Below, piece by piece: positions 1 through 28,976 of a stretch of DNA of 38,186 bases. Each line of letters begins with the position of its first letter. Position 1 is the stretch's first letter. The translations under genes and the position numbers were made by a program. The notes under the pieces are model-generated. The model did no database searches, had not been told where the DNA came from, and was given only the letters and a program-made list of their open reading frames with translations. The DNA is from Leptospiraceae bacterium (lineage in GTDB: Bacteria > Spirochaetota > Leptospiria > Leptospirales > Leptospiraceae). Where the stretch lies: contig JADKCW010000009.1 in assembly GCA_016718635.1 (NCBI GenBank), positions 1 through 38,186 on the forward strand. The letters are read 5' to 3'.

Positions 1-19
1 CTCACCATTAAACACTTAG

Positions 20-123
20 GTCCAAACAATCGGGGAAGCAGAATCAACTTTTATGGTCTATGGAATGCCGAAAGTCGCAAAAGAAATTGGCGCATTAGAT
101 ATTCAACTTCCGGTTGATAAATA
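20..123 (+). pseudogene. C-terminal tail of a CheB-like methylesterase (fragment at the window edge, ends at a stop)
   Basis: Translation reads ...TIGEAESTFMVYGMPKVAKEIGALDIQLPVDK*. This parallels the C-terminus of the intact CheB at 28966..30045 (...TIGESEQSALIYGMPKVAYEIGGVEEQLP...). An in-frame stop lies just upstream, so only the tail is present in the window. Confidence 0.45.
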
Positions 124-169
124 GCATCACTAATACTAGGATTGATTTAGAGATGCACACAATTGTTTT

Positions 170-480
170 TGGGAAGATAGTTCCGTGCAAGATTTAATGC
201 TCGGGCGTATCTTGGGCGAAGGCCTTACTGTGTTTTGGAAAGAATGGAGCAGAAGCCTATGCGTTAGTCGGAGAGAAAAACCTTCTTTCTCATCATAACA
301 GACGTTGAGATGCCGGAACGTGAATGGTTTTGAACTCTGTCGAAAATTAAAAATAACGATGCCTTAAGGACATACCCGTTGTTATCTGCTCTTCTCTTTC
401 TAGACCGGAAGATATTGTACAGGCATCGAATGCGGTGCAGATGATTACGTCACCAAACCCTATGACAAAAGTATTTAATG
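170..480 (+). pseudogene. CheY-like receiver-domain response regulator, disrupted by multiple frameshifts
   Basis: Receiver motifs can be pieced together across three frames: ...GAEAYALVGEK.., ..LIITDVEMPERNGFELCRKLK.., ..NNDAL.., ..PEDIVQASNA.. and GADDYVTKPYD (read directly from ggtgcagatgattacgtcaccaaaccctatgac). No single frame is open across the domain. Confidence 0.5.
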
Positions 481-879
481 TATCGGTGGAGACGCTTCCT
501 AAATAATCCAATTGCAACTAATGAAGATGTTACTCCGATTAATATAAAATTATGCGGGGAAAAACTTTGAGATAGTAGCAGACCGTTTACATATTTAATG
601 TAGCTGGCACCTACCTACGAAAATTCTCTCAAGCAATACAATGAACTCGTAAGATACTCAAATTGAATAAAGAAATTAAACAAATCTTCCAGATCTGGGT
701 AAAAAAGAAACAGAAGAAGTGTTGTTAAATATTTTACTGGCTTGAGTAGCAAAGGAATTAAGGAGACCGGCAAAGCAAAAGCCGGTATTTTATGAAAGTG
801 CAGTATTCTATTTACGGACTTTAAAGGATTCACCAAATTATCAGAGAAATTTACAACGAAGGTGATTCTCAACTAGACT

Positions 880-1230
880 TAGTTTTTGTTATTTCGATTC
901 TATCATGCAAATCATAAGATTGAAAAGATTAAAACAATTGGTGGCTTTTATCATATTGTGCGTAGCCGTATTCGGAGAAAGACCCAAATCATGCGGTTAA
1001 TATCATTAAGGCGGGACTTGAACTGAACTACATGAACATCGTAAATACAATCAATTCCCAACAAGGGAATTCCCACCATGGGAAATTCGGATTGCCCCCA
1101 CCTCGATCCACTCGTCGCAGGAGTTGTAGGGAACGCTAAGAAATTCTGCTACTGATGTCTGGGGAGATTCGGTAAACGTTGCCAGTCGAATGGAATCTTC
1201 TGACTTTCCGGGCAAAGTGAATATTTCAGG
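880..1230 (+). pseudogene. Class III adenylate/guanylate cyclase catalytic-domain remnant
   Basis: Fragments across frames: ..KIKTIGGFYHIV.. (compare KIKTIGDAYM), ..PLVAGVVGNAKKFCY.. then, after an inserted base, ..DVWGDSVNVASRMESSDFPGKVNISG. This is the hallmark cyclase motif. An in-frame TGA falls inside the FCYDVWG motif. Confidence 0.45.
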
Positions 1231-1499
1231 ATCTTTTTTTTTTTATGAATTGATTAAAGAAGATAATTTTATTTTTGAATACAGAGGCAAGGTCACTGAC
1301 CAAGAATAAAGCAGAAATCGTATGTATTTTGTAAATGCAGCTAAGAAGTAATTAGTCCCAGGAATAAAATTTTAATTTCTTCCGATTTGAGTGTTGTATT
1401 CTAGCTTCCATTTTATTCCAATGGGTTATGAATTTCTCTGAGTATAATTAAGTCCGAGTCCGTGATACAAATCAAAACCAATCTTAGAAAATAGACCTT

Positions 1500-2960
1500 A
1501 TGTTTTTATATTGGATGCAAGCCTATCAAAGATTTGAATCCAACAACCCTCTCGAATTATATGCAATATTTCTAGGAAAAGTTAAACCCAAAGAGTTAGT
1601 AGTCTACGAAGGACTGAGGCTGATTACAAAATGGAAATTCAGAGACTTCATAAGTCATATTAGAAGGAATATTACGATAACCACGCCGGAGCCGCAGAAA
1701 AGCTTGGCATAAATTACTGGAGCTTTGTGGAAACTCCTGATAATCCGGCAAAAGGAATTTTGAAAATCTCCGATAAAGCGTGTGTTGTGGTTACAGATGA
1801 TTTTCCCGCATTTATCATCCCGGAACAAATTTGATAAATTATCCATGAAAGTAGACTGCAAGCTTATCGTAGTAGACTCCAAACAGCATCATTCCAATTT
1901 CTCTTTACGAGAGAACGTGCCTCTGCCGCCCGCGTCCTTCGTCCTAGAATTCACCATTTTCGCAGAAGCCTATGTTCATAGAGCAAGGAAAAAGATTTCA
2001 AGAAAGGCTGATTCAAGATGAAAAAGATTTCAAAGCACCATTCAAAGAATTTAAAATAGAAAAGAAAGACATAGATAAATTTCTTTCTAAAGATAAGTTT
2101 ACTTGGTCCTATAAACCTGTTTAGATAGTTGGCGGATCTAAAATAGCATTAGAAAGAATTAAATTGCTTTATTAAGAATAATTTGAAACTTACTGGGATA
2201 ATAGATCGAATCCACATCTCCCGAAGCTAACACCCCGCTAGCGCGATGTCTCCCTATTTACATTTCGGACATATCAGCGTTGAGACAAGTATTGCCCTAC
2301 TAAGTGCAGACGAAAAAGAAACATGGGCGCTTATTCGACTAAATATTGACCCGAAAGGAGACAAAGATACTTTCTGCAGCAAGAATAAAATCTAAACTCC
2401 TATTTTGATGAACTTCTAACATGGAGAGATTATATTTTCTACTACTCTGGCCCTAAAAGAATTCAATAAAGACTAACTTAGAATACTACCTGATTGGATT
2501 CAAAAATCCTAGTCAAACATGCAACTGGATAAGCGGGATTATCTTTATACAAGAAAAGAGTTTGAAGCAGCAAATACCCATGATCCGCCCTGGAATGCTG
2601 CACAAAAGAATTAATTATCAAGGTAGAATGCACAATTATATGCGAATGCCCTAAGGAAAAAAGTCATTGAATGGTCTAAGACTTACCAAGAAGCATTTGA
2701 TAGACTAGAAGAGTTTAATAAAAGTATGCGTGTGATGGAAGAAATCCAAATTCTTATACAGGCATCCTCTGGTGTTTTGGACTATTTGATAGACCGTGAT
2801 TTCCCAAGAGGTGTTCACGAAATTTACGCTATATGTCTTCTGACTCACAAAGAAAAATTTAGGATGACTGAGTATTTAGAGTATATTGCAAAACTAGAAG
2901 GAAAAGAAGAAGTCTATTTTAAGTCTTCGAGAGCCAAAATAGGTGTTTTGCCCTATTGCT
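1500..2960 (+). pseudogene. Class II CPD photolyase-like gene, heavily frameshifted
   Basis: Fragments found: ..SPYLHFGHISV.., ..DPPWNAAQKEL.., ..GRMHNYMRMY..KKVIEWSKTYQEAFDRLEEFNK... These match conserved class II photolyase motifs (SPYLHFGQIS; WNAAQ; GKMHGFLRMYWAKKILEW). They are spread over at least three frames between 1500 and 2960. Confidence 0.4.
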
Positions 2961-4460
2961 GATCGTGAATGTGCTTCCTTCCAACTCTTCGCTTTCCAAC
3001 TGAATCGAAAACCATACAAAAATCTAAAAATGCTTTTCACAACCAGAAAGACTGAGCCCGGTTCCCTTCGTCTTGGCAGTAAACTCATTTCAGATTTGTT
3101 CAAACGGTTCAAAAGACTCGGACAATTTCAGATTTAGGAATACCTATACCAGCGTCCCCAGCACTTCAATATGGTGTTATCCGCATCTTGATATGAATTT
3201 AAAACCAATTCACGACCATTTTGAGTAAACTTGATCGCGTTGCTACTTAGATTGATCAAAACTTGCTTATTCTCGTTCCATCGGCAAATATAAAATAGTC
3301 TCTGCTGCTATCGACATCTAATTCTATTGTAATATTTTTTTAGCTTGCTATGCTTGTGAATTGACTTCTTTCACTAATGCATTGAGATCAGGTTAGTTTT
3401 ATCTATTAACACTCTGCCAGCATCTATCTTTGAAAATCTAATGGTGTTAACGAGGCTAACAAGTGGTTGCCGCTTTCGTAAATATAAGAAACAAACTTGC
3501 TTTGCTTTCATTTAGTTACCAATCTGCTTCCATCTCGAGTAATTGACAATATCCTAAATCGAATCTCAACGGTGTGTTAAATCCATGAGTAAGATTTGCT
3601 AAAACTCGGATTTTGATTATTTGCCTGCCTCTGCCTGGTCAATGCTTTTAGAAGTTTTTGATTAACTTTTCAATTTCTTCAGCATGTAACTTTAACCCAA
3701 CTTCAGCACGTTTACGATTTGTTATATCATTTCTTAATTCCCCAAATAGGAATGGTTGTCTATTCTATAAATTGAGGTATATCTTCCTCTAACCAAATCA
3801 TTTCATTGTCTTTTCGAAAACGATATCTCTATCAAAACTTTTAGAATTAAACGTACAGATTCAAACTTACCCAAAACCCTATTCTATCTTCAGGTAAATC
3901 CGACTTGAACACAATACATACGTAAACTCATCATCTATTAATGTGTTATCTTGAAATCTACGGACTGAAATGGAAATTGTCACTTAAATCAGCAGTCATT
4001 ATATAAATTCACCGGACATATGTTCGACTAGATTCTTGTATTTGATTTCTTCAAATAGAAGACTTTTCTAGCTCCAATGCTTTTCTTCCAAGAATCGGTC
4101 ATTGTAAAGGCACCGAGAGCCTCGTCGACAGAGGATAATAGCTCTTCGTTGCTCCATGGCTTAGAAATATATCTATAAAGGTTAGCATTATTAATAGCAT
4201 TACTAATACTCGTAGTAGAAGCTTGACCCTAAGTAATATTTTCTAGTATCAGGATTAGTCTTATGAATCTGAATTAGTAATTCATCTCCATTCATAAGAG
4301 GCATTAATCTATCACATATAACTACAGGCAAATCAGTGTTATCCTCATTGCATTTTTTTACAATATCCAACGCTAGCTCAGCAGTATCAACCGCTTGAAT
4401 AGAAAATTCCTGTCCATATTTGCGCATCAATTGTTGACTGAGAGAGGATAGAATAATCAA
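2960..4460 (-). pseudogene. Hybrid sensor histidine kinase (N-terminal receiver, PAS, HisKA, HATPase_c), heavily frameshifted
   Basis: On the minus strand: a receiver fragment (ORF 4203..4460, ..LPVVICDRLMPLMNGDELL..), the PAS/HisKA junction GELRNDITNRKRAEVGLKLHAEEIEKLI (reverse complement of about 3650..3735), an H-box-like THGFNTPLRFDLGYCQLLE, and an HATPase_c region ..KFTQNGRELVLNSYQDADNTIL.. then ..GIPKSEI..FEPFEQ..TAKTKGTGLSLS..LESEELEGSTFTISN. The pieces lie in different frames. Confidence 0.5.
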
Positions 4461-4633
4461 CTCATCGTCTACGCATAATATTACAGGCCTCGGTAACGTT
4501 ATTTATTTTCAGTTTATTGACTAAGTCAAGCTGGAACATAGAATAGTATACTTTTCCAATAATTGCCTAGATGAGAAAAGCACTTTTATTTCAATTCGAT
4601 TTTTTCCAGCTATAATTCGATAAAGAAAATATT

Positions 4634-6740
4634 TTAATTATCCGCGTCGCCATCTATGAAATTTTCCACATACGAAAGCAATTTCTCTGGCTTATTCGCC
4701 TTCTTCCAATTACCCGCAACGAACTTATTTGCTTCTGACATCGTTGGATATGTATGAATTGTTCCTAATATTTTATTTAGACCAAGTCCATGTTTCATAG
4801 CGAGAACATACTCCGCAAGCAAGTCTCCTGCATGTGCGGATACTATAGTTACTCCCAATATTTTATCGGTTCCTATTTTGGTCAGGACTTTTATGAATCC
4901 ATTTGCCTCACCATCGGCAATAGCTCGGTCGAGTTCTCCAATATCATATTGACTCAATTCTATTTCAATATTCTTTTCTTTTGCTTCGGCTTCCGTTAAG
5001 CCTACATGAGCAACTTCTGGGTCCGTGAATGTTGTCAAGGTATAACGCTGTAATCCGCTTTAAACTTTTAGCAAATCCAAAAGTGCATTGACCGAGGCAT
5101 ACCATGCTTGATGAGATGCGGTATGTAAATTGATAAGGTCCTGCCGCGTCTCCGCAAACAAATATATTTGGAAAATTCGTTCGTAAAAATTCATCTGTCT
5201 CAATCGTTCCATTCGGATTTAAGCGAATTCCCAATTCTTCGATTCCAAATCCTTTTGTTCTTGCCTTTCTCCCGATAGCAAGGATTACTTCATCAAATTT
5301 GATTTCTACTTTGTTGCCATTAGCCTCACAAATTACAGAATTCACTTTTCCTTTTTAAATTCTATGGCTTTATGTGATGTTAAAATTTTAGCCTCTTTTT
5401 TCCAGGCTTCCTTTATGAAGGCAGAAACATCAAATCTTCTTTGGGCATGATTCGCTCCCCCATTTCAACTAACGCTAGTCGGAACCAGTCTAGAAAATGC
5501 TTGCGATAATTCACACCAATCGGTCCCCAGGATAGAAGTTTCTGCATTTTTTAAATCCCAGAGCGTCTCGAGGTGAGATATTTTATTTCATTTAGTCCAG
5601 AATATTTGGAATATAAGGCTCCGCACCGAGCGATTACGATTGATTTTGCGCTATATTCTTTACCATTAATAGAAACAACGTAGGGCTAACAATCTTTGCA
5701 TCTCCCGAAAAACATTCTACGCCTAATTTCGTATAACGCTCCACAGAGTCATTTGGTTCAATTTTTTTAACTACACCGGCAACTCTTTTCATTACGGTAG
5801 CAAAATCAAATTCAATCTTTGCAGACTTAATTCCATACTCTGCAATTCTTTTCTCTGTGTGAATTTTCTTAGCAACTGCAATGAGTGCTTAGAGGGAACA
5901 CATCCATAGTTCAGACAATCGCCACCCATCTTATGTCTTTCGACTAACGCAACCTTAGCCTTAACTGTAGCCGCAATATAAGAAGTTACAAGTCCAGCGG
6001 CTCCTGCTCCAATTACAATTAGATTGTAATCAAATGAATTTGGCTTTTTATAGTTCTTGTAAATCTTTTGATTTTTTAAATATGCAATGATGGATTTACC
6101 AAATAAAGGAAGAATGCCAAGGGCAACAAATGAAAAAAGTAGATTTGGAGAAAGAATGTCCTTTAAGGAGCTAATGCTTGCTAGTTGCGTGCCGGCATTT
6201 ACATAAACGATAGTTCCCAAAAGCATTCCAATTTGGCTGACAAAAAAGAAAACAAACACTGAAATGTCTGTTAGCCCCATCAATACATTAATCAAGAAGA
6301 AAGGAAAAATAGGAATCATTCGCAGTGTAAAAAGATAAAAAGCACCGTCTTGACGCACACCTTTATCAATAGCAGTCAATTTATCAGAAAATTTTTCTCG
6401 TAGAGTATCTCGAAATAGATATCTAGAAATTAGAAACTGAGAGTAGCACCAATAGTGCTAGCGAAGGAAACAAGGATTACACCCTTCAGGAGACCAAATA
6501 AAGCACCACTACCAATGGTTAAAATCGTAGCACCTGGCAAAGCAACCGCTACAGAAATTATATAAAGCAAGATATAAGCAGAAATGAATAGAATTTCATT
6601 TTTTGCGCATAATAGCTATTTAACAGTTCTTTATTACTCTTCAAAGATTCAAAAGATAAATATTCTTGCAAACCATAATACCTTGCAAGCACAATGAGTG
6701 CAATCACGGAGAGGATAATCAAGAGTTTCTTTAGTTTCAT
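4634..6740 (-). pseudogene. DedA/TVP38-family membrane domain fused to a class I pyridine nucleotide-disulfide oxidoreductase (dihydrolipoamide-dehydrogenase or mercuric-reductase-like), multiply frameshifted
   Basis: The minus-strand ORFs 6558..6740, 5792..6379, 4965..5345 and 4634..5038 are collinear pieces. They give an N-terminal TM/DedA-like segment, then ..YNLIVIGAGAAGL.. (FAD-binding GxGxxG), ..GGDCLNYGCVPSK.. (redox-active CxxxxC) and a C-terminal dimerisation region (..HTYPTMSEA..). No open frame covers 5345..5792. Confidence 0.55.
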
Positions 6741-6770
6741 ACGGTTCCTTTATTAATATTTTCCATGTCA

Positions 6771-6832: not shown

Positions 6833-6897
6833 TGACAAAGAGCGACAACGCTATTTTATTTCAAATTGCCACAGTGCAAGTATTTCGCAAGATGACT

Positions 6898-7961
6898 GGA
6901 ATGAAAGACAAAATTATTTATATCCGCGGAGTTGGAGTGATTGGCTGGCCTCTCGCTGGACTTTTTCTTTCGCTAAAGAATTTACTGCCTGAAATAAAAA
7001 TCGCAATAGAGCCATATAAAATAAATGCGGAAAACATCTATCACTTGGAGCACCTTTGCAAACTAGGCGCTCTGATGGTAGAATCAGATATGAATAGCTC
7101 GAATGAGGCTTCGAAATGGTTTGCGTTAAGATACGTATGCAATGCAGAAGAAATTCGCAATTCCTGTGAAATCGTTCTAGATTGCTCTCCATCTGGTGTT
7201 GCAGAAAAAAGAATAGGCGAATATACAAAAGAAAATTATCCAAACACAAAAGCATTTATCGCGCAGGGAAGTGAGCATACGTTTGGCAAACAGCTATTAT
7301 TTCCTGATAATACCGAAATCCTGGAAAATACAAAGGAATTTTTCTTTCATGTAAGCACGTGCAACACACATACATTATCCGCAATCGTAAGAATATTTAA
7401 CGCTATTCCAATAAAAATTTCAAATACAGATTTTGTAATTATCCGCCGCGACGCAGACATGGCTAAAAATGATCCGCATGTAACAGGACCACTCTTTCAA
7501 TTTCCAGAAGGCTCACACGGAACCCATCATGCAAGACTTTTAAATGAACTCTATAAAACGGTAAATCAATCTTATCCGGTGACATCGAGTGCAATGACAG
7601 TTAATTCTCCGTATATGCATATTACCCGCTTTAGAATAGAACTCGAAAAGAAATCTCACGTAAAGAAATTTTAGAATCCATTAATAACGATCCACTTCTT
7701 TCCTTAACAAGTCAGGTTTCCTCCAATATGATTTTCTCCTCCGGTCGAGAGCGTGGCGAGTTTGGAAGAATATTTTCTCACGCAGTCTTCGTCGAACCAA
7801 GCCTTGAGGTTAACGGTAATATTGTCCGTGGAATTGCCGCTACACCAGGAGATTCGAATGTGTTGATTTCTACGATTTATTCTACTCTTAAAATATTGGG
7901 TCATGAGCGGTTAAATGATATTATGCTTGCGTTGTATGGGAAGGTGTTGAAGAATATTTGA
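6898..7961 (+). CDS. Archaeal-type (type II) glyceraldehyde-3-phosphate dehydrogenase homologue, with one frameshift near 7665..7680
   Basis: N-terminal Rossmann motif IYIRGVGVIGWPLAG. The catalytic region ..FHVSTCNTHTLSAIVRIF..FVIIRRDADMAKNDPHVTGP..GSHGTHHARLLNE..SSAMTVNSPYMHITRFRIEL aligns with Sulfolobus GAPDH ..VVSCNTTALLRTI..ATIVRRAADQKEVKKGP..PSHHAKDVN..MAVIAPTTLMHMHFINITL. The C-terminal part continues in ORF 7728..7961 after a +1 shift. The annotated 6832 start is a GTG inside the upstream hairpin, so an ATG at 6898 or 6907 is more likely. Confidence 0.5.
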
Positions 7962-7968
7962 AGAATAC

Positions 7969-8021
7969 CATGCGAAGGCGCTGGTCGCGAATACTTGGAG
8001 CGAAGGGTGGAATGGACACAG
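7969..8021. repeat. GC-rich dispersed intergenic repeat, copy A
   Basis: catgcgaaggcgctggtcgcgaatacttggagcgaagggtggaatggacacag is shared with 9745..9785 (catgcgaaggcgttgggcgacctagcgcagggtggaaacag). Both copies lie immediately 3' of plus-strand genes. Confidence 0.4.
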
Positions 8022-8063
8022 ATGGACCACAGATAAAAGATTAGGAGATTTACCGCCGTAATC

Positions 8064-8091
8064 GTAGAGACGTAGCGCGCTACGTCTCTAC
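8064..8091. terminator. Perfect 28-bp palindrome (14-bp arms) followed by a direct repeat of gacgtctctac
   Basis: gtagagacgtagcgc|gctacgtctctac. It is GC-rich in an AT-rich setting and lies between the convergent GAPDH-like (plus) and Uma2 (minus) genes. It is a plausible bidirectional terminator, but there is no U-tract. Confidence 0.3.
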
Positions 8092-8097
8092 GACGTC

Positions 8098-8625
8098 TCT
8101 ACTTCACAAAAATCTTCTCAGGTAAAATATCCATACCTTCTATCAACTTTGACTCAATAGAATCAGGAGTATAATCAGTCGAAGCGTGTAATTTGTATTT
8201 GCCGTCAATGAGAGTAAAGACTTCAATCGATTCTATTTCAGGAAACACTAGCCAGAATTCTTTGACGCCGAAGGTTTCGTAGATTTCTTTTTCTCGACAC
8301 TGTCTCTTGTGAGCGTTCCTTTGGAAACTACTTCGATGACTAGATCAGGAGTTCCGTAAATCCATTCACGGAGTAGATGAAGATTTTCTTTTTTCAAATA
8401 AATCAAATCCGGTTGTAGACGAAACTTTCCTTCTTCTAAAATTACGTCTAGCGGAGAAAGAAATACTTCTCCTAAACCATTCTCTTCCACATACCTGCTC
8501 ATATATTTAAAAATATTTGCTACAATTCTTTGGTGATACCCAAAAGGACTAGGTGCCATTCTCTTTTCTCCCTGAATGATTTCAGTTAGATCAAAGTCTT
8601 GGATTGTATCAGTCGTTGTATTCAT
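8098..8625 (-). pseudogene. Uma2-family (DUF820) endonuclease with a single frameshift
   Basis: ORF 8248..8625 gives the N-terminal two thirds (..FGYHQRIVANIF..LQPDLIYL..PDLVIEVVS..). The C-terminus EIYETFGVKEFWLVFPEIESIEVFTLIDGKYKL...KIFVK* continues in another frame. The shift is within gagaaaaagaaatc at about 8290. Confidence 0.55.
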
Positions 8626-8835: not shown

Positions 8836-9736
8836 ATGAATTATAAAAAATAGTATTAGCCGGTGGGACTGGTTTTGTGGGAAAATACCTAAAGACAAAG
8901 TTTAGTGAATTGGGTTACGAAGTAAAAATTATTTCGAGGCAAAATGATAGTATCCAGTGGGATGATATTTCTTCCATCGTTGATGCCCTTGACAATTCAG
9001 AAATGCTAATTAACCTCGCAGGAAAATCCGTCGATTGTCGTTATAACAAAAAAAATAAAGAAGAAATTTTGAAATCAAGAACAGAAACTACCAGAATACT
9101 CGGAGAAGCGATTTTGAAATGTAAGAATCCTCCCGAACTTTGGATCAATTCTAGCACGGCAACCATTTACCGTCATGCGCAAGATCGACCAATGACAGAA
9201 AGCGGTGGAGAAATAGGAAGTGGATTTTCAGTTGGTGTAGCAACTCAATGGGAAAAACATTTTTTGATTTTCAATTACCAAAGACTAGACAAGTTGCTTT
9301 ACGCATGGCAATCGTTTTAGGAAAAGAGGGGGGAGTCATGACACCCTTTAAAAATCTAGTTCGCTTTGGTTTAGGCGGCAAACAAGGCGATGGAAATCAA
9401 ATGTTCAGTTGGATTCATATTGAGGATTTATTTACTATTATCCGCTTCTTACAATCCAATAAAAATATGACAGGGGCTTACAACTGTTCATCTCCCAATC
9501 CAGTTTCCAATGCCACTTTAATGCAATCACTAAGAAAGGCAATGAATGTAAAATTTGGTTTACCATCTCCTAAATTTCTTCTAGAAATTGGGGCAATCAT
9601 GATAAGAACAGAAACGGAGCTAATCTTAAAAAGCCGCTGGGTCATTCCAGAAAGATTACTGAAAGCGGGATTTCAATTTCAATTTTCTAATATTGACAAG
9701 GCGCTAGAAAATATTTTAATAGAAAAAGGGAGATAG
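8836..9736 (+). CDS. YfcH-like (TIGR01777/DUF1731) NAD-dependent epimerase/dehydratase family protein, two frameshifts
   Basis: MNYKK then, after a missing base in an a6 run, IVLAGGTGFVGKYL (Rossmann GxxGxxG). This continues as ORF 8877..9320 and then ORF 9248..9736 (..RQVALRMAIVLGKEGGV..RFGLGGKQGDGNQMFSWIHIEDL..). The second shift is in aaaaaacattttttg. Confidence 0.55.
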
Positions 9737-9744
9737 ACCTCTCA

Positions 9745-9785
9745 CATGCGAAGGCGTTGGGCGACCTAGCGCAGGGTGGAAACAG
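9745..9785. repeat. GC-rich dispersed intergenic repeat, copy B
   Basis: See copy A at 7969..8021. This copy is directly 3' of the epimerase stop codon. Confidence 0.4.
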
Positions 9786-14683: not shown

Positions 14684-17600
14684 ATGTTAGAGGATTTAAA
14701 AATTTCAACGAAGCTTAGGCTGGGATATGGATTAGTTATATTTTTCCTCGTCATACTAAGCACTATTGTGTTCTATTTGATGAGTCATTTGGGAGGAAGT
14801 TTGGAGAAAATTACCAAAGTGTATTCACCTAAAGTTGTCCGAAGCAATAATATTATTGACCGCGTCAATGAAAATACAATTTACCTACTCAGCGCAACAC
14901 TAAAAGAATCGAGAGAAGAAGTATTGCTTGCAAAAGATAGAATTCTGCAAAACCGTTCAGGCAATGTGCAAGATATTCAGTTTCTCCGTGAAAATGCAAA
15001 TACGGAAAAGGAAAGATTTGGCATACAGGAATTAGCCGATGCAAGAACAAAATTCATTCCCTATCAGGACAAATACATTTCGCAATTAGAAGTAGGCGAC
15101 TACAAAGGAGCAAAAGATACTTTACCTCAATTCTCAGTTACTCAGCAGCAATATTTGAAAGCGGTAAAAGATTTAATCGTATATGAAACAGAGCTGTCTA
15201 CTACTGCCAATCAAGAGTCACTCAATGATTCTCAAAAAAGCGAGTTCCTATGTGCTAGTTATATCGTCTATCGCTATTCTTTTTTCTATCTTCTTCAGTT
15301 ACATGACTTCAAATTCTATTACGAAACCGTTAGCCGCTCTACTCCTTGCTATTCGCAAAGTGGAAAAAGAAGGAGAATTTTCTATTAAAGTAGATTCAAC
15401 CTCCAAGGATGAAGTAGCAGAGGTCGCTAACTCACTCAGTAGTTTGTTAGCAATGCTAGAGAATATGAAAAAGATACTATGTTACTTACAGAATCTGCCA
15501 TTCAGGGAAAACTTTCTACTCGTGCAGATATTTCTCGTTATCCCGGTGACTTTAGAAAGGTTGTAGAAGGGGTTAATAAGACATTAGACGCTGTGATTGG
15601 ACCTTTAAATGTTGCCGCAGATTATGTAGATAAAATATCCAAAGGAAATATCCCTTCCAAAATCACCGATACCTACAACGGAGATTTTAACACTATCAAA
15701 AATAATCTCAACACTTGCATTGGCTCCCTTTTGGGTATTATTGAATCCATGAATGATATGTCCAAACAGCATGAACTGGGAGACATTGATGTAAAAATTG
15801 ACGTTTCAAAATTCCAAGGTGCATACCAAGAAATGGTTACTGGTATCAATAAAATGGTATTTGACCATATTAGCGTTAAAAAAAGAGCAATGGGAATTTT
15901 TAAAGAATTTGGAGAAGGAAATTTTGAGGCAAATATTGATAAGCTACCTGGCAAAAAAGCTTTCATCAATGAAATAATTGATCAAGTCCGATTGAACCTA
16001 AAAGCGTTGATTAGTGATGCTGGAAAATTGGCAGATGCTGCTGTCAAAGGTCAATTAGCTACGCGTGCCGATGCAACCAAACACAAAGGAGACTTCCGTA
16101 AAATTGTCGAAGGGGTTAACGCTACATTAGACGCAGTTATTACACCTTTAAACGTTGCCGCTGATTATGTAGACAAAATCTCTAAAGGAATTATTCCTCC
16201 CAAAATTACAGAGAGTTATAATGGAGATTTTAATACTATTAAGAATAACTTAAACCTACTCATTGACTCTGAAAGTCTGCTTACCAATGTAGCCTCTTCT
16301 CTATCTATTGGAAATACAGAAGTCAGAATTGAAATGAGATCACAAGGAGACTCCCTATTCAAGAATATCCAAAGTATGATTGCAAATACCCAACATGATG
16401 CCGCCGTTGTTCAAAGTTTAGCGGAGGGAAATCTAGATGTCGAAATAAAAGTCATGTCAGATAAAGACATCATGGCAAAGAGTAACGTTGCCATTCGAAA
16501 TGCACTGAAAGAACTAGTTGCCGATGCTAATATGCTTTCCCGCGCGGCTATTGAAGGTAAGCTTTCAACAAGAGCAGATGCATCAAAACACAAAGGCGAT
16601 TTCCGAAAAGTAGTCGAAGGGGTTAATCAGACATTAGACGCTGTAATCAGTCCAATGCAGGAATCCTCCAACGTATTATTGGAATTAGCCAAAGGAAATC
16701 TAAGTGCAAGAGTCAACGGTGATTACAAAGGCGATCATGCCATCATCAAGAATGCTTTAAATTCCAGTCTCGAAACTTTAAACGAATATGTGGGAGAAAT
16801 TTCCAGAGTCCTGTCTTCCATGTCTTCGGGCGACTTAACTATCGAGATTAAGAAAGCGTTTAATGGTGATTTTGCGGAAATCAAAGAAGCTTTAAAGCTT
16901 ATCATTGAATCGTTCAATGATTTGATCGGGGAAATCATCGATGCATCGGAGCAAATCTTTATTAGCTCTAGGCAAGTTGCCGACTCCAGCCAATCTCTCT
17001 CACAAGGCTCTAACGAACAAGCAAGCAGTGTAGAAGAAATAACTGCTACTCTTGCTGTCATAGAACTCAAAGCTAAGGATAATGCCAATAATGCGAAGAA
17101 TGCTAGTGATCGCGCTCTCAATGTAAAAGACCAAGCAGTATCAAGCAATAACGAAATGAAAGGGATGCTCAAAGCAATGGAAGAAATTAGCGAAACATCC
17201 GAAAACATTGCTAAGATTATCAAAGAAATTGATGCAATTGCATTCCAAACAAACATACTCGCATTAAACGCTGCTGTAGAAGCAGCACGTGCAGGACAAC
17301 ATGGAAAAGGATTTAACGTAGTTGCAGAAGAAGTCCGTAACCTCGCATCTCGTAGTGCCAATGCTGCAAAAGAAACTACTAAGATGATTGAAGGTTCGAT
17401 TAAAACTGTTCGTTCTGGTATGGACATTGCGGGAAGAACTGCAGGCGAATTAAACAAGATGACTGCAGGTGTTGTAGAAGTGACAGACCTGGTGAAAGAC
17501 ATTGCAGCGGCATCTATGGAGCAATCTTCTTCTGTTGTAGAGACGACCTCTGGCATCAATCAGATTTCGCAGGTGACTATGAGTGCAGCCGCAACAGCAG

Positions 17601-17749
17601 AAGAAAGTTCTGCGGCTAGTCTTGAGTTGTCGAGCCAAGCAGAAGCATTTCAAAATATGGTAAAACGTTTCAATATTAAAAGGGGAAAAGAGGAAAAAAA
17701 GAAAGAAGCACCGCTAACAACGGGGAAAAGAAAGATTAACCTCAAATAA
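14684..17749 (+). CDS. Methyl-accepting chemotaxis protein 1: TM1, four-helix-bundle periplasmic sensor, TM2, HAMP repeats, MCP signalling domain; two frameshifts
   Basis: ORFs 14684..15388, 15183..15566 and 15479..17749 are collinear pieces. They give TM1 ([16 protein letters not shown]), a helical periplasmic domain, TM2 plus HAMP (..[42 protein letters not shown]..), repeated ..[58 protein letters not shown].. units, and a highly conserved MCP signalling domain (..[46 protein letters not shown]..). A Shine-Dalgarno site aagagga precedes the ATG. Confidence 0.75.
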
Positions 17750-21334: not shown

Positions 21335-24300
21335 ATGTTTAAAAACCTAAGTATTAAAAACAAATTATTATCACTGTTTATAGGAATCATTCTTTTTTTT
21401 GCAGGTTTGATTTTCTATTCTATAAAACAGATGGATTCTGTCGCAGCAGTTGCAGACAAATTGGCAAATGATAGAATTCCCAAAGTAATGGCTTTAGCGG
21501 AGATTTCGAAGAATGTCAATATCATTGCAAGAGCCGCTCGGAACATGTATATCTTCAGAGAAAAATCAATGGTTGATGAAGAAAAAAATACCATTCTCAA
21601 ATCCAGAGAAATCATCGGACAAAAATTTGACTATTTAAAGCCCATTATCAAAAATCCAAAAGGACAGGAGATTTTGACAGAGGCAATGCAGACTCGCTCC
21701 GAGTTTATCAAAGCGCAAGACTCTTTTATTTCCGCAATCGAAAGGGATGACAAAGACGAAGCTTACAATATATTAATCAAAGACTTCCGTCCTATTCAAT
21801 TAAAATACATCGGTCACTTAGATAAATTATTAGAATTTCAAGCCACCTTTGCTCAAAATGAAGCAAACCTGTCTGTAGGAAATATAATCGAAGTTACCAA
21901 TAGAATATCATGGATTTCTATTCTATTTGGAATACTCGTAGCTTATCTTGGTTATACAATCGTAACCTCCATTCTTAATTCCATTCGTAATCTGGAAAAA
22001 AATGTCAATGAAATCGGGAAAGAAGGTAACTTTGATACAAAAATAGAAACCGATTCTACAGATGAAATCGGGGTATTTGCCGGAAGCTTTAAAGAGATGA
22101 TGAAAGGTATGAAGGACATGCTCGCTGATGCCAACATGCTTTCCCGCGCTGCCGTTGAAGGAAGACTTGCTACAAGAGCGGACGCAACGAAATACAAAGG
22201 TGATATGCGCAAAATTGTAGAAGGGGTTAATCAGACATTAGACTCTGTAATCAATCCTCTCAACGTTGCTGCTGATTACGTAGAGAAAATCTCTCGTGGT
22301 GCTATCCCTGCTAAAATTACTGACACTTACAACGGTGATTTCAATGTTCTTAAAAACAACATAAACAATGCTATTGATAATGTAAACGCACTTGTGGCTG
22401 ATGCCGGTATGCTTGCGAAAGCAGCAGTAGAAGGTAAACTTGCAACTCGCGCTGATGCTACTAAGCACCAAGGCGATTATCGCAAGATTGTAGAAGGGGT
22501 TAACCAGACATTAGACTCTGTAATCAATCCTCTCAACGTTGCCGCTGATTATGTAGATAAAATCTCCCGTGGTGCAATACCTGCTAAGATTACAGATCAA
22601 TACAACGGTGACTTTAACGTTCTAAAGAACAACTTAAACAATGCAATTGATAATGTAAACGCACTTGTGGCTGATGCCAGTATGCTTGCGAAAGCAGCAG
22701 TAGAAGGTAAGCTTGCAACACGTGCTGATGCTACTAAACACCAAGGCGACTATCGTAAGATTGTAGAAGGGGTTAACCAGACATTAGACTCTGTTATCAA
22801 TCCTCTCAATGTTGCAGCAGATTACGTTGATAAAATATCCCGTGGCGCAATCCCTGCAAAGATTACTGACACTTACAATGGTGACTTTAACACAATTAAG
22901 AACAACTTGAACAACGCTATCGACAATGTAAATTCACTTGTGGCTGATGCCGGTATGCTTGCGAAAGCAGCTATCGAAGGTAAGCTTGCAACTCGTGCTG
23001 ATGCTACTAAACACCAAGGCGACTATCGTAAGATTGTGGAAGGAGTTAATCAGACGTTAGACTCGGTGATTGGACCTCTCAATGTTGCAGCGGATTATGT
23101 AGATAAAATTTCCCGTGGTGCTATTCCTGCTAAGATTACCGACACTTACAACGGTGACTTCAACGTTCTAAAGAACAACTTAAACAATGCAATTGATAAT
23201 GTAAACGCACTTGTGGCTGATGCCGGTATGCTTGCGAAAGCAGCCGTAGAAGGTAAACTTGCAACTCGTGCTGATGCTACTAAACACCAAGGCGATTATC
23301 GCAAGATTGTAGAAGGGGTTAATCAGACGTTAGACTCTGTTATCAATCCTCTCAACGTTGCCGCTGATTATGTAGACAAAATTTCTCGTGGTGCAATACC
23401 TGAAAAAATCACTGCTACTTACAATGGTGACTTTAATACAATTAAGAATAACTTAAACAATGCGATTGATAATGTAAACGCACTTGTAGCTGATGCCGGT
23501 ATGCTTGCGAAAGCAGCAGTAGAAGGTAAACTTGCAACTCGTGCTGATGCTACTAAACACCAAGGCGACTATCGTAAGATTGTGGAAGGGGTTAATCAGA
23601 CATTAGACTCTGTTATTGGTCCTCTTAACGTTGCCGCGGATTATGTAGATCGTATTGCGAAAGGAAACACACCTCCAATTATTACTGATACGTATAATGG
23701 CGATTTCAACACTCTAAAGAATAACCTCAATTTGGCGATCAATGCGATTAACCAACAAGCAGAGGCAGCAGTTGCCATTTCTGAAGGAAATCTCTCCGTC
23801 AAAGTAAATGTTCGCTCTGAAAATGATTTACTCTCAAAGAGTTTAATCACTGTTATGCAAGTCTTGCAAGCCTTACAAAAAGAATTACTTCGTCTTACAG
23901 AAGCCTCTAAAGCAGGTATGTTAGATGAAAGAGGAAAACCAGAACAATTCAAAGGTGCCTATGCAGATGTTTTAATTGGCGTAAACACAATGCTCGATGC
24001 GATTCTAATTCCAATAGGGGAAGGAAATAGAGTATTAAGACTTATTAGAGGCGGAAATTTACGGGAACGAGTAGAGATTGAATGTCGTGGTGATCATCAA
24101 AAAATGAAAGATGCCGTCAACGGAGTCATTTGTGGCTTACTGATCTTGTAGCCTATGTAAATAAGATATCTAACGGTGATTTGACTGCAACAATGAACAA
24201 AGCTTCCGAACAAGATCAAATTCATGAGTGGTTGATGCTAATGAAAAATAATATCGGCAACCTCGTCTCTGATGCCGGTATGCTTTCAAAAGCGGCTATC

Positions 24301-26586
24301 GAAGGTAAGCTTGCAACACGTGCTGATGCTACTAAACACCAAGGTGACTATCGTAGAATTGTAGAAGGGGTTAATCAGACGTTAGACTCGGTAATCGGTC
24401 CTCTTAACGTTGCTGCTGATTATGTTGATAAAATCTCTCGTGGTGCTATCCCTGAAAAGATCAGCGATACTTATAACGGTGACTTTAATGTTATCAAGAA
24501 CAACTTAAACAATGCGATTGATAATGTAAACGCACTTGTGGCTGATGCCGGTATGCTCGCGAAAGCAGCTATTGAAGGTAAGCTCGCAACACGTGCGGAT
24601 GCAACTAAACACCAAGGCGACTATCGTAAAATTGTAGAAGGGGTTAATCAGACGTTAGACTCTGTGATCGGTCCTCTCAATGTAGCCGCTGATTATGTTG
24701 ATAAAATCTCTCGTGGTGCTATTCCTGCTAAGATTACTGACACTTACAACGGTGACTTCAACGTTATCAAGAACAACTTAAACAATGCGATTGATAATGT
24801 AAACGCACTTGTGGCTGATGCCGGTATGCTTGCGAAAGCAGCAGTAGAAGGTAAGCTTGCAACTCGCGCTGATGCGACTAAACACCAAGGCGATTATCGT
24901 AAAATTGTAGAAGGAGTTAACCAGACGTTAGACTCTGTGATAGGTCCTCTTAATGTTGCCGCGGATTATGTAGATAAAATTTCCCGCGGGGCTATTCCGA
25001 CTAAGATTACGGATACTTACAATGGAGACTTTAACACAATTAAAAACAACTTAAACAACGCAATTGATAATGTAAATGCTCTCGTGGCTGATGCCGGTAT
25101 GCTTGCGAAAGCAGCTATTGACGGTAAGCTTGCAACACGTGCAGATGCTACTAAACACCAGGGCGACTATCGTAGAATTGTGGAAGGAGTTAATCAGACA
25201 TTAGACTCGGTGATCGGTCCACTTAACGTTGCTGCTGATTATGTAGATAGAATTTCTCGCGGTGCAATTCCAAATCAAATTACGGATACTTATAATGGGG
25301 ATTTTAACACTCTAAAGAACAACCTTAATCGTTGTATTGAAAACGTAAACGCACTTGTGGCTGATGCAGGTATGCTTGCGAAAGCGGCTATTGATGGTAA
25401 GCTTGCAACTCGTGCAGATGCGACCAAACACCAAGGTGACTTCCGTAAGATTGTGGATGGGGTAAACAACACATTAGACGCTGTTATCCTTCCAGTGCAA
25501 GAAGCTTCCGCAGTGTTGCTAGAATTGTCTAAAGGAAACTTAAAAGCTAGAATGCTCGGTGATTACAAGGGAGATCATGCTACTATTAAGACTGCTCTTA
25601 ATACAAGTCTGGTAACGTTAAACGATTATGTGGGGGAAATTTCGCGTATCCTCTCTTCTATGTCAGCAGGTGACTTAACTGTTGAAGTAACAAAAGACTT
25701 TATGGGAGATTTCGCTGAGATTAAAAAAGCACTCACTCTCATCGTTGATTCCTTCAATGAGCTCATTGGTGAAATCATCAATGCTTCGGATCAAATCCTC
25801 ATTAGCTCTAGACAAGTGGCTGACTCCAGCCAATCTCTCTCGCAAGGATCAAACGAACAAGCTAGTAGCGTAGAAGAGATTACTTCAACGCTGGCAGTAA
25901 TCGAACTCAAAGCTAAGGATAACGCGAAGAATGCGAAGGACGCAAGTGACCAAGCTATGAACGTGAAAGACCAAGCAGTTTCTAGTAATAACGAAATGAA
26001 GGGAATGCTCAAAGCGATGGAAGAAATCAGTGAAACTTCCGAAAACATTGCGAAGATTATCAAAGAAATTGATGCAATCGCATTCCAAACAAATATACTC
26101 GCATTAAACGCTGCGGTGGAAGCTGCCCGTGCAGGTCAACATGGAAAAGGATTTAACGTGGTGGCGGAAGAAGTTCGTAATCTCGCTTCTCGTAGCGCGA
26201 ATGCTGCGAAAGAAACCACTAAGATGATTGAAGGCTCGATTAAAACAGTTCGCTCTGGTATGGACATTGCGGGAAGAACTGCAAACGAATTGAATAAGAT
26301 GACAGCTGGTGTTGTAGATGTTACAGAGCTAGTGAAAGACATCGCGAGTGCTTCGATTGAGCAGTCTTCGTCGGTAGTAGAGACTACAACTGGTATCAAT
26401 CAGATTTCACAGGTGACAATGAGTGCTGCTGCTACAGCAGAAGAAAGCTCAGCAGCTAGTCTTGAGTTGTCTAGCCAAGCAGAAGCATTCCAAACAATGG
26501 TAAAAAGATTTCAAATTAAGAAATCAAAAGATGATAAAAGAAGAGACCAACAATCTGGCGGAAAGAAAAAAATTGATTTGAAGTAA
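21335..26586 (+). CDS. Giant poly-HAMP methyl-accepting chemotaxis protein 3 (about 1750 aa if read through one frameshift at about 24125)
   Basis: ORF 21335..24151 plus ORF 24130..26586. A +1 shift in ggagtcatttgtggcttactga restores ..[27 protein letters not shown]... Architecture: TM1, 4HB-type periplasmic domain, TM2, HAMP, 6 tandem di-HAMP units, a divergent HAMP-like linker of about 170 aa, 5 more di-HAMP units, 2 HAMP, then the MCP signalling domain and a KR-rich tail. Confidence 0.8.
22127..23765 (+). repeat. Tandem array of six near-identical 273-nt (91-aa) coding repeats, each a di-HAMP unit, within MCP3
   Basis: Unit starts (gatgcc...) at 22127, 22400, 22673, 22946, 23219 and 23492. 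The period is exactly 273 nt. The unit is [91 protein letters not shown]. Each unit holds two HAMP-like helix-connector-helix segments of alternating type. Confidence 0.85.
24271..25635 (+). repeat. Second tandem array of five 273-nt di-HAMP coding repeats within MCP3
   Basis: Unit starts at 24271, 24544, 24817, 25090 and 25363. The last unit diverges (..[24 protein letters not shown]..). Confidence 0.85.
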
Positions 26587-27095: not shown

Positions 27096-28976
27096 ATGCT
27101 TGGAGAAAATGAACTTTCAGACCTTGTGCTTGATTCACAAGAGATATTGGATAAAGCAGAAGCAATTCTGATCCAATTGGAAAAAAGTTTAACTGAGTCA
27201 ACGGTTGACGCAGATAAGGTAAATTCATTATTCCGCTATTTCCATACACTCAAAGGAAATGCGGGATTTTTCAATTTCAATGTGATAGTAAACCTATCGC
27301 ATTCAGCAGAATCATTATTAGAGATTGTAAGAAATGACAATTCTCTTCTTGATCAAAAAATGATTCAGCTCTTCATGGAAGCAAGAGATACTCTATACGA
27401 AATATTCACAAATTTAAACGAAAACAAAACAGATACAATGTATAAAGAGAAGGCGGATACTTTAATTCCCCGACTCTTCTATATAAAAGAAAATCTAAAA
27501 GCAGAGTCTTCAGAGCCAAAGAAAGAAGAGCCTAGGTTTGGAATCTTCAAAAAGAAAATTGTGCTTTCTGATACTCCAATAACAGAAGAGGATAATAAGG
27601 AGTTGCCAGTTTCGAATGAACCTGCCCCTACTCCGGAAAATTCAGAATCTGATAAGTTAGATAAACATATTACAGAGAGAGCCACGCAAGAAAATCCTGT
27701 TTTAGAAAAAAAGATTCAAAATACTATAGAGGCAAATAACGGTAATTCGAATGGACAAGCTACAGTAAAAAGAGACATTCGAATCGAAACAGAGAAATTA
27801 GATTACCTACTAGACATGATTGGTGAGCTAGTGATAGCTGAATCTCTTGTAACTCAAAATCCAGACATCAAAGAACTAGATCTTCCGAACTTTTCTATTC
27901 AATCTTCCTATTTACGTAAAGTAGTCCGTAATCTACAAGAAGTATCCTTGCAGCTAAGGATGATTACCCTCGAAGGTTTGTTTAATAAAATGGAACGACT
28001 TGTTCGAGACTTAGCACAAAAAACAGGAAAGAAAGTGGGTCTTCAAGTTACGGGAAAAGAAACAGAAATTGATAAGAATGCCCTTGAAATATTAACAGAT
28101 CCACTAGTTCATATTATCCGCAACTGTATCGATCATGGATTGGAAACAGGCAAAGAGAGATTAGCCAAAGGCAAAGTAGAATCCGGTCATATCAAGATTG
28201 AAGCAATGCATTCAGGAAATGAAGTATGGATTATTATTTCTGATGATGGTGCAGGCTTAGATAGAGATAGAATTTTGAAAAAAGCAATGGCTCGCGGATT
28301 AATCAAAGAAGGAGAAGACGAAAATCTAAAAGACGAAAGAATTTGGGATTTTATTTTTCAACCTGGATTCTCGACTAGTGATAGAGTAACTGATATTTCA
28401 GGACGCGGAGTAGGACTTGATATAGTTCGCAGAAATATAGCAAAGATCAACGGCGATGTTGAAATCAAGACGAAAAAAGACCAGGGAGCATCGTTCATTC
28501 TAAAGCTACCTCTTACAATTGCTATCATTGAAGGTATGGTGGTAATCTACAACGGGGTATTCTATATTATCCCCACAATAGACGTAAAAGAAACACTGAA
28601 TTTGGCAGAATCGAAAATCGACTATATCGATCAGGACAAAAAAGTAATTCGCTTCCGAGAGCAGCTAATACCCGTTGTCTCCGTAGAGAGATTACTCAAT
28701 CACGATTCAAGTGACAAGGACTCTAACTACGAAAATTCTTTATATGTAATTATTGTGGAGTATAAGAATAATTCGCTAGCCCTAGTATTTGATGGAATTG
28801 TAGGAAATCAATCGGTTGTAATTAAACCAATTCCAGATTATTTAAAAGGAACAAAGGGCTTTTCAGGTTGCACAATCCTGGGAAGTGGGAATATTGGAAT
28901 GATTCTAGACATTAGATTCTTTATTAATAATTACTACAAGGAAAACAAAGAATCCGAAGCAGCACATGGACAATAA
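27096..28976 (+). CDS. cheA: CheA histidine kinase (P1 HPt, P3 dimerisation, P4 HATPase, P5 CheW-like; no obvious P2)
   Basis: 626 aa. The HPt region is ..FRYFHTLKGNAGFFNF... P3 is ..IRIETEKLDYLLDMIGELVIAESLV... P4 has ..HIIRNCIDHGLE.. and ..GRGVGLDIVRRNI... P5 is ..LPLTIAIIEGMVV..SLALVFDGIVGNQSVVIKPI... Confidence 0.9.
   Translation: MLGENELSDLVLDSQEILDKAEAILIQLEKSLTESTVDADKVNSLFRYFHTLKGNAGFFNFNVIVNLSHSAESLLEIVRNDNSLLDQKMIQLFMEARDTLYEIFTNLNENKTDTMYKEKADTLIPRLFYIKENLKAESSEPKKEEPRFGIFKKKIVLSDTPITEEDNKELPVSNEPAPTPENSESDKLDKHITERATQENPVLEKKIQNTIEANNGNSNGQATVKRDIRIETEKLDYLLDMIGELVIAESLVTQNPDIKELDLPNFSIQSSYLRKVVRNLQEVSLQLRMITLEGLFNKMERLVRDLAQKTGKKVGLQVTGKETEIDKNALEILTDPLVHIIRNCIDHGLETGKERLAKGKVESGHIKIEAMHSGNEVWIIISDDGAGLDRDRILKKAMARGLIKEGEDENLKDERIWDFIFQPGFSTSDRVTDISGRGVGLDIVRRNIAKINGDVEIKTKKDQGASFILKLPLTIAIIEGMVVIYNGVFYIIPTIDVKETLNLAESKIDYIDQDKKVIRFREQLIPVVSVERLLNHDSSDKDSNYENSLYVIIVEYKNNSLALVFDGIVGNQSVVIKPIPDYLKGTKGFSGCTILGSGNIGMILDIRFFINNYYKENKESEAAHGQ

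Follow-up and report, generated by a model that had tools for sequence, protein, structure and literature searches.

A putative bacterial sister family of the archaeal class II glyceraldehyde-3-phosphate dehydrogenases, seen from a frameshifted Leptospiraceae gene

The 38,186-nucleotide contig JADKCW010000009.1 from a Leptospiraceae bacterium (assembly GCA_016718635.1), which in its entirety we call the window, carries on its forward strand, at 6892-7961, a gene for a 356-residue protein (two frames joined by restoring one A). By sequence, profile and predicted fold, its closest characterised relatives are the archaeal type II (class II) glyceraldehyde-3-phosphate dehydrogenases (GAPDHs). On balance we favour the view that it belongs to a bacterial sister family of archaeal class II GAPDH, and that the product would be a phosphorylating enzyme of the GAPDH type which, in Leptospiraceae, probably uses NAD.

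Class II GAPDH is generally treated as an archaeal enzyme. The proteins described here form a large sister family, catalytically intact as far as its residues indicate, which is spread across bacterial phyla and does not look like a one-off import from archaea. Its hosts include abundant marine Marinimicrobia and Planctomycetota as well as the agents of leptospirosis, and NCBI names its members "hypothetical protein". Should the family prove to be a working GAPDH, metabolic reconstructions of these hosts lack an isoenzyme, whose cofactor may be a different one; should it act on something else, it would represent a new enzyme activity. Either outcome is modest in scope: automated annotation already hints at the identity of the protein, and nothing about it is mechanistically strange. 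The window copy is itself one more family member, with a probable assembly error.

Similarity to the archaeal enzymes

A first-pass annotation, made from the sequence of the window alone, had described the gene as an archaeal-type GAPDH homologue on the strength of three motif matches. These are real when set against the Sulfolobus solfataricus enzyme (PDB 1b7g): VSTCNTHTL aligns with VVSCNTTAL, IIRRDAD with IVRRAAD, and GTHHARL plus SPYMH with PSHHAKD plus TLMH. The similarity extends well beyond these points. The only NCBIfam families matched by the window protein are the two type II GAPDH models, NF003251 (69.2 bits, E 3e-19) and TIGR01546 (54.5 bits, E 1e-14), and a phmmer search of the PDB returned archaeal GAPDHs only (2yyy, 1b7g and 1cf2, E 2e-7 to 2e-5). 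The claim that the protein does not align with bacterial type I Gap likewise holds at the level of models, in that Gp_dh_N gave no match and Gp_dh_C, the only Pfam match, reached 13.4 bits against a cut-off of 24.4; in the comparison of type II with Gp_dh models that had been proposed as a check, the type II models thus give the only significant matches.

The label of type II GAPDH homologue nevertheless survives in part only. The archaeal enzymes are the closest characterised relatives, but the curated equivalog cut-offs are 185 bits for NF003251 and 232.9 bits for TIGR01546, and with scores this far beneath them the protein falls, by these models, outside the type II GAPDH equivalog. The same is true of the family at large: in a set of 76 diverse full-length members, not one attains the type II equivalog cut-off (best E = 4.9e-38), and type II GAPDH models rank first for 71 of them. 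When the family is represented by a profile, the relationship covers the full length of the four archaeal structures with E-values from 1e-33 to 8e-41, whereas type I GAPDH and erythrose-4-phosphate dehydrogenase (E4PDH) are matched at about 1e-6. An AlphaFold2 model built from the family alignment (pLDDT 88.3, pTM 0.90) gives the same ranking by Foldseek, where the best four distinct PDB entries are the archaeal 2yyy, 1b7g, 2czc and 1cf2 (TM-scores 0.75-0.82 at 16-20% identity) and the next group comprises type I GAPDH and E4PDH, with TM-scores of about 0.6.

We also considered whether aspartate-semialdehyde dehydrogenase (ASADH) or another Rossmann dehydrogenase might be the true family, an outcome which, together with loss of the catalytic cysteine motif, the first-pass annotation had named as fatal to its proposal. 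No ASADH match to the window protein was obtained from Pfam or NCBIfam, a single family member out of 76 has a marginal one (E 7e-4), no other Rossmann dehydrogenase family gives the best match either, and the cysteine motif is conserved; these candidates were rejected.

Set side by side, the family and the archaeal class II enzymes (NF003251, TIGR01546; 1cf2, 1b7g, 2yyy, 2czc) share a two-domain fold (predicted here), are collinear over their full length, and have in common a catalytic cysteine within S/T-C-N-T, an equivalent of the archaeal His219 base, Arg-Arg and His-His phosphate sites, and QG.E and GRD motifs. They differ in that identity is low and the scores amount to about one third of the equivalog cut-offs, in that the bacterial family has SCNTH for SCNTT and TPxDGN for HQES, extra insertions, a divergent N-terminal domain and bacterial hosts, and in a cofactor-site substitution particular to Leptospiraceae. 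Bacterial type I GAPDH (for example that of L. interrogans, PDB 8oha) belongs to the same superfamily, has the same overall chemistry and places its cysteine in S-C-x-T, but is set apart from the window protein by fold similarity and by the Pfam results above, and by the catalytic histidine and phosphate-site residues, which lie here at class II positions.

Active site and cofactor position

The reference for the active site is the M. fervidus enzyme (1CF2), in which Cys140 is flanked by Ser139, Asn141 and Thr142 and His219 acts as the base; inorganic phosphate is bound by Ser139, Asn141, Arg167, His193 and His194, the substrate phosphate by Arg167 and Arg168, and Lys33, following strand beta-2, goes with NADP use in class II GAPDH (2025 review, PMC12041015). 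We compared these positions in two alignments, one of 25 close homologues and one of 76 distant family members. The nine M. fervidus active-site positions correspond to T156, C157, N158, T159, H243, R185, R186, H212 and H213 of the window protein, with Ser139 to Thr as the sole change, and they are invariant in all 25 close homologues and mostly kept in the distant members.

The catalytic motif Thr156-Cys157-Asn158-Thr159, equivalent to Ser139-Cys140-Asn141-Thr142, is encoded at 7357..7368 (+; codons tgc-aac-aca at 7360-7368). Cys157, Asn158 and Thr159 do not vary among the close homologues, the cysteine is present in 69 of the 76 distant members, and the wider family mostly has S-C-N-T. Arg185-Arg186 (7444..7449, +; codons cgc cgc), which align with the archaeal VRRAAD and correspond to Arg167 and Arg168, are predicted to contribute to the substrate-phosphate and inorganic-phosphate sites; both are invariant in the close set and occur in 69/76 and 74/76 distant members, respectively. 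His212-His213 (7525..7530, +; codons cat cat), aligned with the archaeal PSHH and hence with His193 and His194, form a predicted part of the inorganic-phosphate site, again without variation among close homologues; in the distant set His212 is found in 66/76, while position 213 is His in 44 and Gln in 27. Finally, His243 (7618..7620, +; codon cat; archaeal LMH alignment), the counterpart of His219 and predicted cysteine-activating base, sits at the class II position and not at that of type I His176, and is conserved in 25/25 and 73/76 sequences. Judged from these residues, nothing that a phosphorylating GAPDH needs for catalysis and phosphate binding appears to be missing.

A subgroup of the bacterial family, exemplified by P0118, has lost the catalytic cysteine (IPDVGTH in place of VSCNTH) together with the Arg-Arg pair, and its Cys-less members are probably non-catalytic or repurposed.

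The dinucleotide-binding motif G13-x-G15-x-x-G18 (GVGVIG; 6928..6945, +) aligns with the archaeal NGYGTIG, and its glycines are invariant in the 25 close members and present in 73-75 of the 76 distant ones. At the end of strand beta-2, where the archaeal enzymes have Lys33 within 'AKTSP' and the wider family has 'HKxTP' (Lys in 63/76), the alignment places Glu40-Pro41 of the window protein (7009..7014, +), and the Leptospiraceae motif reads 'IEPY'. Glutamate or aspartate occupies this position in 23 of the 25 close homologues, and lysine is found in no Leptospiraceae member. At this point, the end of strand beta-2, an acidic residue is classically taken as a mark of NAD preference. Since Glu-Pro replaces the NADP-determining lysine in Leptospiraceae, this suggests that the Leptospiraceae enzyme prefers NAD(H) over NADP(H).

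Distribution and phylogeny

An initial protein search recovered intact homologues across Leptospiraceae, with 47-51% identity in L. noguchii, L. weilii and L. licerasiae and 66-96% in environmental Leptospiraceae. The L. interrogans orthologue (AAN48914.1 / AAS70655.1) is a "hypothetical protein" at NCBI, though some UniRef entries are named "Glyceraldehyde-3-phosphate dehydrogenase". A profile search of 1.84 billion representative proteins then gave 610 matches at E <= 1e-3, including 117 at E <= 1e-30, and scanning GTDB species genomes led to 192 confirmed loci, which besides Leptospira fall in Planctomycetota, Neomarinimicrobiota, Krumholzibacteriia, Lentisphaeria, Deltaproteobacteria and Actinomarina. 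Searching a 5.8-billion-protein collection with the profile yielded 1,193 clusters and added Acidobacteria, Tectomicrobia, Myxococcota, Bdellovibrionota and Acidimicrobiia; cluster names are "GAPDH (NAD(P))" or "type II" where JGI assigned them by KO, and "hypothetical protein" where they come from NCBI.

A bacterial copy of an archaeal enzyme had been taken to suggest lateral acquisition or an alternative function, and a phylogeny had been proposed as a check. We built a neighbour-joining tree (100 bootstraps) from the sequences of the four archaeal structures, as aligned in the profile searches, together with 82 bacterial ones, with Leptospira type I Gap as outgroup. The four archaeal references group together at 100% bootstrap support, and not one of the 82 bacterial sequences falls among them. 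The Leptospiraceae group plus two relatives, also with 100% support, is placed among the bacterial sequences. Monophyly of all bacterial members receives 35% support only, with four archaeal sequences sampled, so that the tree does not settle the deep branching.

Neither the phylogeny nor the distribution bears out the proposed acquisition. That this bacterium recently acquired an archaeal type II gap gene by lateral transfer has in its favour that the closest characterised relatives are archaeal, but we consider it very improbable: identity to the archaeal enzymes is only 16-20%, the family extends over many bacterial phyla (192 GTDB species genomes) and lies outside the archaeal clade, and the gene is conserved within Leptospiraceae together with its surroundings, the synteny being kept in relatives that are 85% identical. 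Its G+C content of 0.39 is unremarkable against a range of 0.31-0.42 in the window. Tree, synteny and ordinary G+C content together argue against a recent archaeal transfer; an ancient inter-domain relationship is possible.

Two independent searches turned up only pathogenic and intermediate (P1/P2) species of Leptospira and no saprophyte, which does not prove absence from the latter.

Genomic context

To survey genomic context, neighbouring open reading frames (ORFs) were clustered from 85 loci, and three further phyla were inspected. In Leptospira, a gamma-carbonic-anhydrase-like hexapeptide gene and cysK lie on either side of the gene, separated from it by intergenic gaps of about 165 bp. 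In Marinimicrobia the neighbours are tilS-hpt-ftsH-folP; in Planctomycetota they encode a 1,347-residue protein without known function, a protein with HEAT repeats, and NagZ; and in other phyla they are miaB, RNase G and tsaD, with ribosomal protein clusters close by. A pdx gene was not found in the vicinity. The gene usually stands alone among housekeeping genes, as would be expected for a core enzyme rather than a pathway-specific one.

No type I gap occurs within the window. In the genus Leptospira, however, type I gap-pgk lies 3-6 kb away on the opposite strand in 17 of the 17 loci with enough flanking sequence (the loci surveyed being L004, L005, L014-L016, L018-L020 and L022-L030). As the two co-occur, the Leptospira protein is a second GAPDH-like enzyme and not a replacement for the type I enzyme.

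Proposed function

The reaction that we infer, substrate and cofactor included, is that of a phosphorylating aldehyde dehydrogenase of the GAPDH type. Cys157, activated by His243, would bind the substrate as a thiohemiacetal, which would become a thioester by passing a hydride to NAD(P)+; and inorganic phosphate, bound by Thr156, Asn158, Arg185, His212 and His213, would attack the thioester, with Arg185 and Arg186 holding the phosphate group of the substrate. The substrate pair would most likely be glyceraldehyde-3-phosphate and 1,3-bisphosphoglycerate.

Several observations weigh against this proposal. With scores so far below the equivalog cut-offs, orthology with the characterised GAPDHs is not established. 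A literature search found no assay of any family member; nor did searches on the bacterial class II GAPDH family, Leptospira locus tags and K00150 find a description of this bacterial family. Because genus Leptospira has a canonical type I gap-pgk, it has no obvious need of a second GAPDH. The neighbourhood, tried as a functional clue, was rejected as such: the neighbours are housekeeping genes that vary with lineage, so no pathway can be inferred from them.

A further point is that the only bacterial "type II GAPDH" assayed in the literature, a different and closer homologue, had no GAPDH activity. This is CDQ83_07070 of P. thermosuccinogenes, annotated as type II GAPDH, whose assay revealed no activity with either NAD+ or NADP+; the authors note that functional evidence for a bacterial class II GAPDH does not exist and that just a handful of bacterial genomes contain the gene (PMC6543838). 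Like the Leptospira protein, it is a class-II-related homologue whose bacterial host has type I enzymes as well. However, its name was given by PGAP, so the curated model accepts it, and it is presumably a genuine copy of the archaeal type, of a kind that the authors report as rare in bacteria, whereas the family described here fails the model, is called hypothetical at NCBI and is widespread. Given this difference in model membership, the negative result is a caution and not a direct test.

These considerations lend some weight to a rival that keeps the fold and chemistry but changes the substrate. The protein would then be a dehydrogenase or reductase of class II descent for some other small phosphorylated aldehyde or acyl-phosphate, outside glycolysis and gluconeogenesis. 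Erythrose-4-phosphate dehydrogenase, which arose from type I GAPDH, offers an analogy. Epd (PDB 2xf8 / 2x5j) is a precedent for a GAPDH-derived paralogue that works beside GAPDH on another sugar phosphate, and its structures are in the group that follows the archaeal GAPDHs in the structural search; unlike the family here, it is type I-derived, and it has TM-scores of about 0.6 only and a profile E-value of about 1e-6. A change of substrate would accord with bit scores of 69 and 54.5 against cut-offs of 185 and 233, with an entire bacterial family below those cut-offs and outside the archaeal clade, with the co-occurrence of type I gap-pgk in all 17 Leptospira loci, with the inactivity of the assayed bacterial type II GAPDH, and with conserved features that the archaeal enzymes lack (SCNTH against SCNTT, AQGSEHxFG, and TPxDGN against HQES). 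Yet the two phosphate sites and the Cys/His pair match exactly those of the enzymes that use glyceraldehyde-3-phosphate, and in no lineage examined does a conserved neighbouring gene indicate another pathway. We therefore regard a different substrate as possible, and a GAPDH-type enzyme acting on glyceraldehyde-3-phosphate as the better-founded proposal.

One may also envisage an enzyme family not described before that acts physiologically on something other than glyceraldehyde-3-phosphate, or else a dedicated second GAPDH with a distinct role; its cofactor site would have changed in Leptospiraceae from the NADP type to the NAD type, and in Leptospira it would perhaps be restricted to the pathogenic and intermediate clades. 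We hold this combination to be possible, though less likely than not.

Reading frame, start codon and frameshift

In the sequence as given, a frame-1 ORF runs on the forward strand from GTG 6832 to TAG 7672-7674, and a second frame takes over at 7650 and ends at TGA 7959-7961. The 5' part of the coding sequence (6892..7649, +; residues 1-253, frame 1) covers the Rossmann fold and the greater part of the catalytic domain. The 3' part (7650..7961, +; residues 254-356 plus the TGA) contains the motifs GRERGxFGRI and TPGDSN, and its translation is the same, without a single difference over that stretch, as that of P0001, a relative with 96% identity. Once repaired, the 356-residue protein aligns end to end with 24 homologues, no further repair being needed.

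The start codon had been called uncertain, and so it remains between two candidates: from alignment with homologues it is likely to be ATG 6892 (MTGMKDK...) or ATG 6901. In the homologue alignment most family members start 4-8 residues ahead of the IYIRG strand, and the equivalent of GTG 6832 is used by one gene call only, that of P0001; GTG 6832 is probably unused.

A frameshift had also been reported, near 7670 and separating roughly 90 residues. It is real in the sequence as given, but DNA alignments place it at 7646..7649 (+), where the window has four A residues and its relatives five; what lies near 7670 is the resulting premature TAG, and the number of residues detached is 103. The window reads GAAAAG where three independent relatives read GAAAAAG (L086/L087 at 96% DNA identity, L001 at 85% and L006 at 85%), and the missing A is the sole indel in 1,194 aligned bases against L086. 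The frame is intact in P0001 and in every other aligned homologue.

With the frame repaired, the ratio of nonsynonymous to synonymous substitution rates (dN/dS) comes to 0.158 in comparison with L086 and 0.154 with L001, and the gene is under purifying selection. On the 3' side of the frameshift dN/dS is 0.10 against L001, and there are no nonsynonymous changes at all against L086; with values this low beyond the break, the 3' part has not drifted as untranslated sequence would. Together, an intact relative at 96% identity and a dN/dS of 0.15 that stays low downstream indicate that the break is either an assembly error or very recent. Most likely, as the sequence comparisons suggest, it is an assembly or sequencing error, the alternative being a very recent real mutation.

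Differences between the window and the 96%-identical Logan contig L086 are distributed very unevenly: the 754 nt upstream of the frameshift contain 45 of them, the 318 nt downstream only one. This lopsidedness may reflect recombination or a chimeric short-read contig.

The flanking genes are damaged as well. In L001 the syntenic neighbours are a 710-residue VTT-domain/pyridine-nucleotide-disulfide oxidoreductase, a 176-residue Uma2 protein and a 298-residue epimerase/DUF1731 protein. The window counterpart of the first (4634-6740, -) is in at least five pieces through 1-bp deletions where L001 has 710 residues uninterrupted, and comparison of 4657-6750 with L001 requires 26 gap openings. The Uma2-family gene (8248-8625, -) encodes 125 residues in place of 176 and is broken by small indels, and the epimerase/DUF1731 gene (8877-9736, +) is present as overlapping ORFs of 147 and 162 residues, again through small indels, where L001 has a single one of 298. 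Positions 1-4600 of the window contain no ORF of 90 residues or more, although L001 encodes two sensor-kinase genes there, of 502 and 550 residues; over 1428-4547, which corresponds to these two genes, identity to L001 is 70.7% with 97 gap openings. Indel density declines with distance from the start of the window, whose indel-rich beginning could be due to low assembly coverage or to local gene decay.

Relative to syntenic relatives, one-base deletions near the gene outnumber one-base insertions 24 to 3. So many single-base deletions in neighbouring genes would fit an error-prone stretch of assembly. One feature speaks against that explanation: 16 of the 24 deletions lie in runs of at least two, compared with a background of 55% (p = 0.17), and without significant homopolymer enrichment genuine decay of the region is possible.

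In its strong form, the argument from decay would make this genome's copy a genuine pseudogene, giving no functional protein, in a part of the window (about 1-11 kb) that would be decaying; this is a matter separate from the function of the family. It draws on the interrupted frame, on the breakage of the oxidoreductase, Uma2, epimerase and two sensor genes relative to L001, and on the excess of one-base deletions without a significant tie to homopolymers. We nevertheless find it unlikely. There is a single lesion in 1,071 bases of the gene, selection is evident over its whole length and past the break, and the 96%-identical relative and all remaining homologues are intact. Moreover, overlapping same-strand ORF pairs that resemble split genes recur at 14.7-17.7 kb, 21.3-26.6 kb and 31.8-34.5 kb, and such possible split genes elsewhere in the window suggest errors throughout the assembly. 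An error in the assembly or the underlying reads therefore remains our preferred explanation of the frameshift.

Other features of the window

A scan for promoters and terminators found nothing over background. A G+C-rich short repeat (CATGCGAAGGCGYTGG ... AGCGMAGGGTGGAA) occurs at 7969-8012 and at 9745-9781, in each case directly 3' of a gene's stop codon; shuffled sequence gave no matches to it. Between the convergent GAPDH-like and Uma2 genes lies a perfect 32-nt palindrome (8062-8093), which is also present in L001.

Further along, a chemotaxis cluster on the forward strand (14684-17749 and 21335-26586) encodes poly-HAMP methyl-accepting proteins; two overlapping same-strand ORF pairs look as if single genes had been split by frameshifts. 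In the second pair, 21335-24151 encodes a 4HB_MCP domain and seven HAMP_2 domains without a signalling domain, and 24130-26586 encodes five HAMP_2 domains and MCPsignal; if joined, the two would give a methyl-accepting chemotaxis protein of about 1,750 residues with 12 HAMP_2 domains. CheA (27096-28976) and CheB (28966-30045) follow. At 31759-34251 (+) an 830-residue protein combines the shoulder domain of the eukaryotic Major Vault Protein (E 6e-24) with a Vault_3 repeat and an SPFH/Band-7 region, which domains make it a bacterial protein like the Major Vault Protein; a short ORF in another frame (34199-34489) overlaps the end of its gene.

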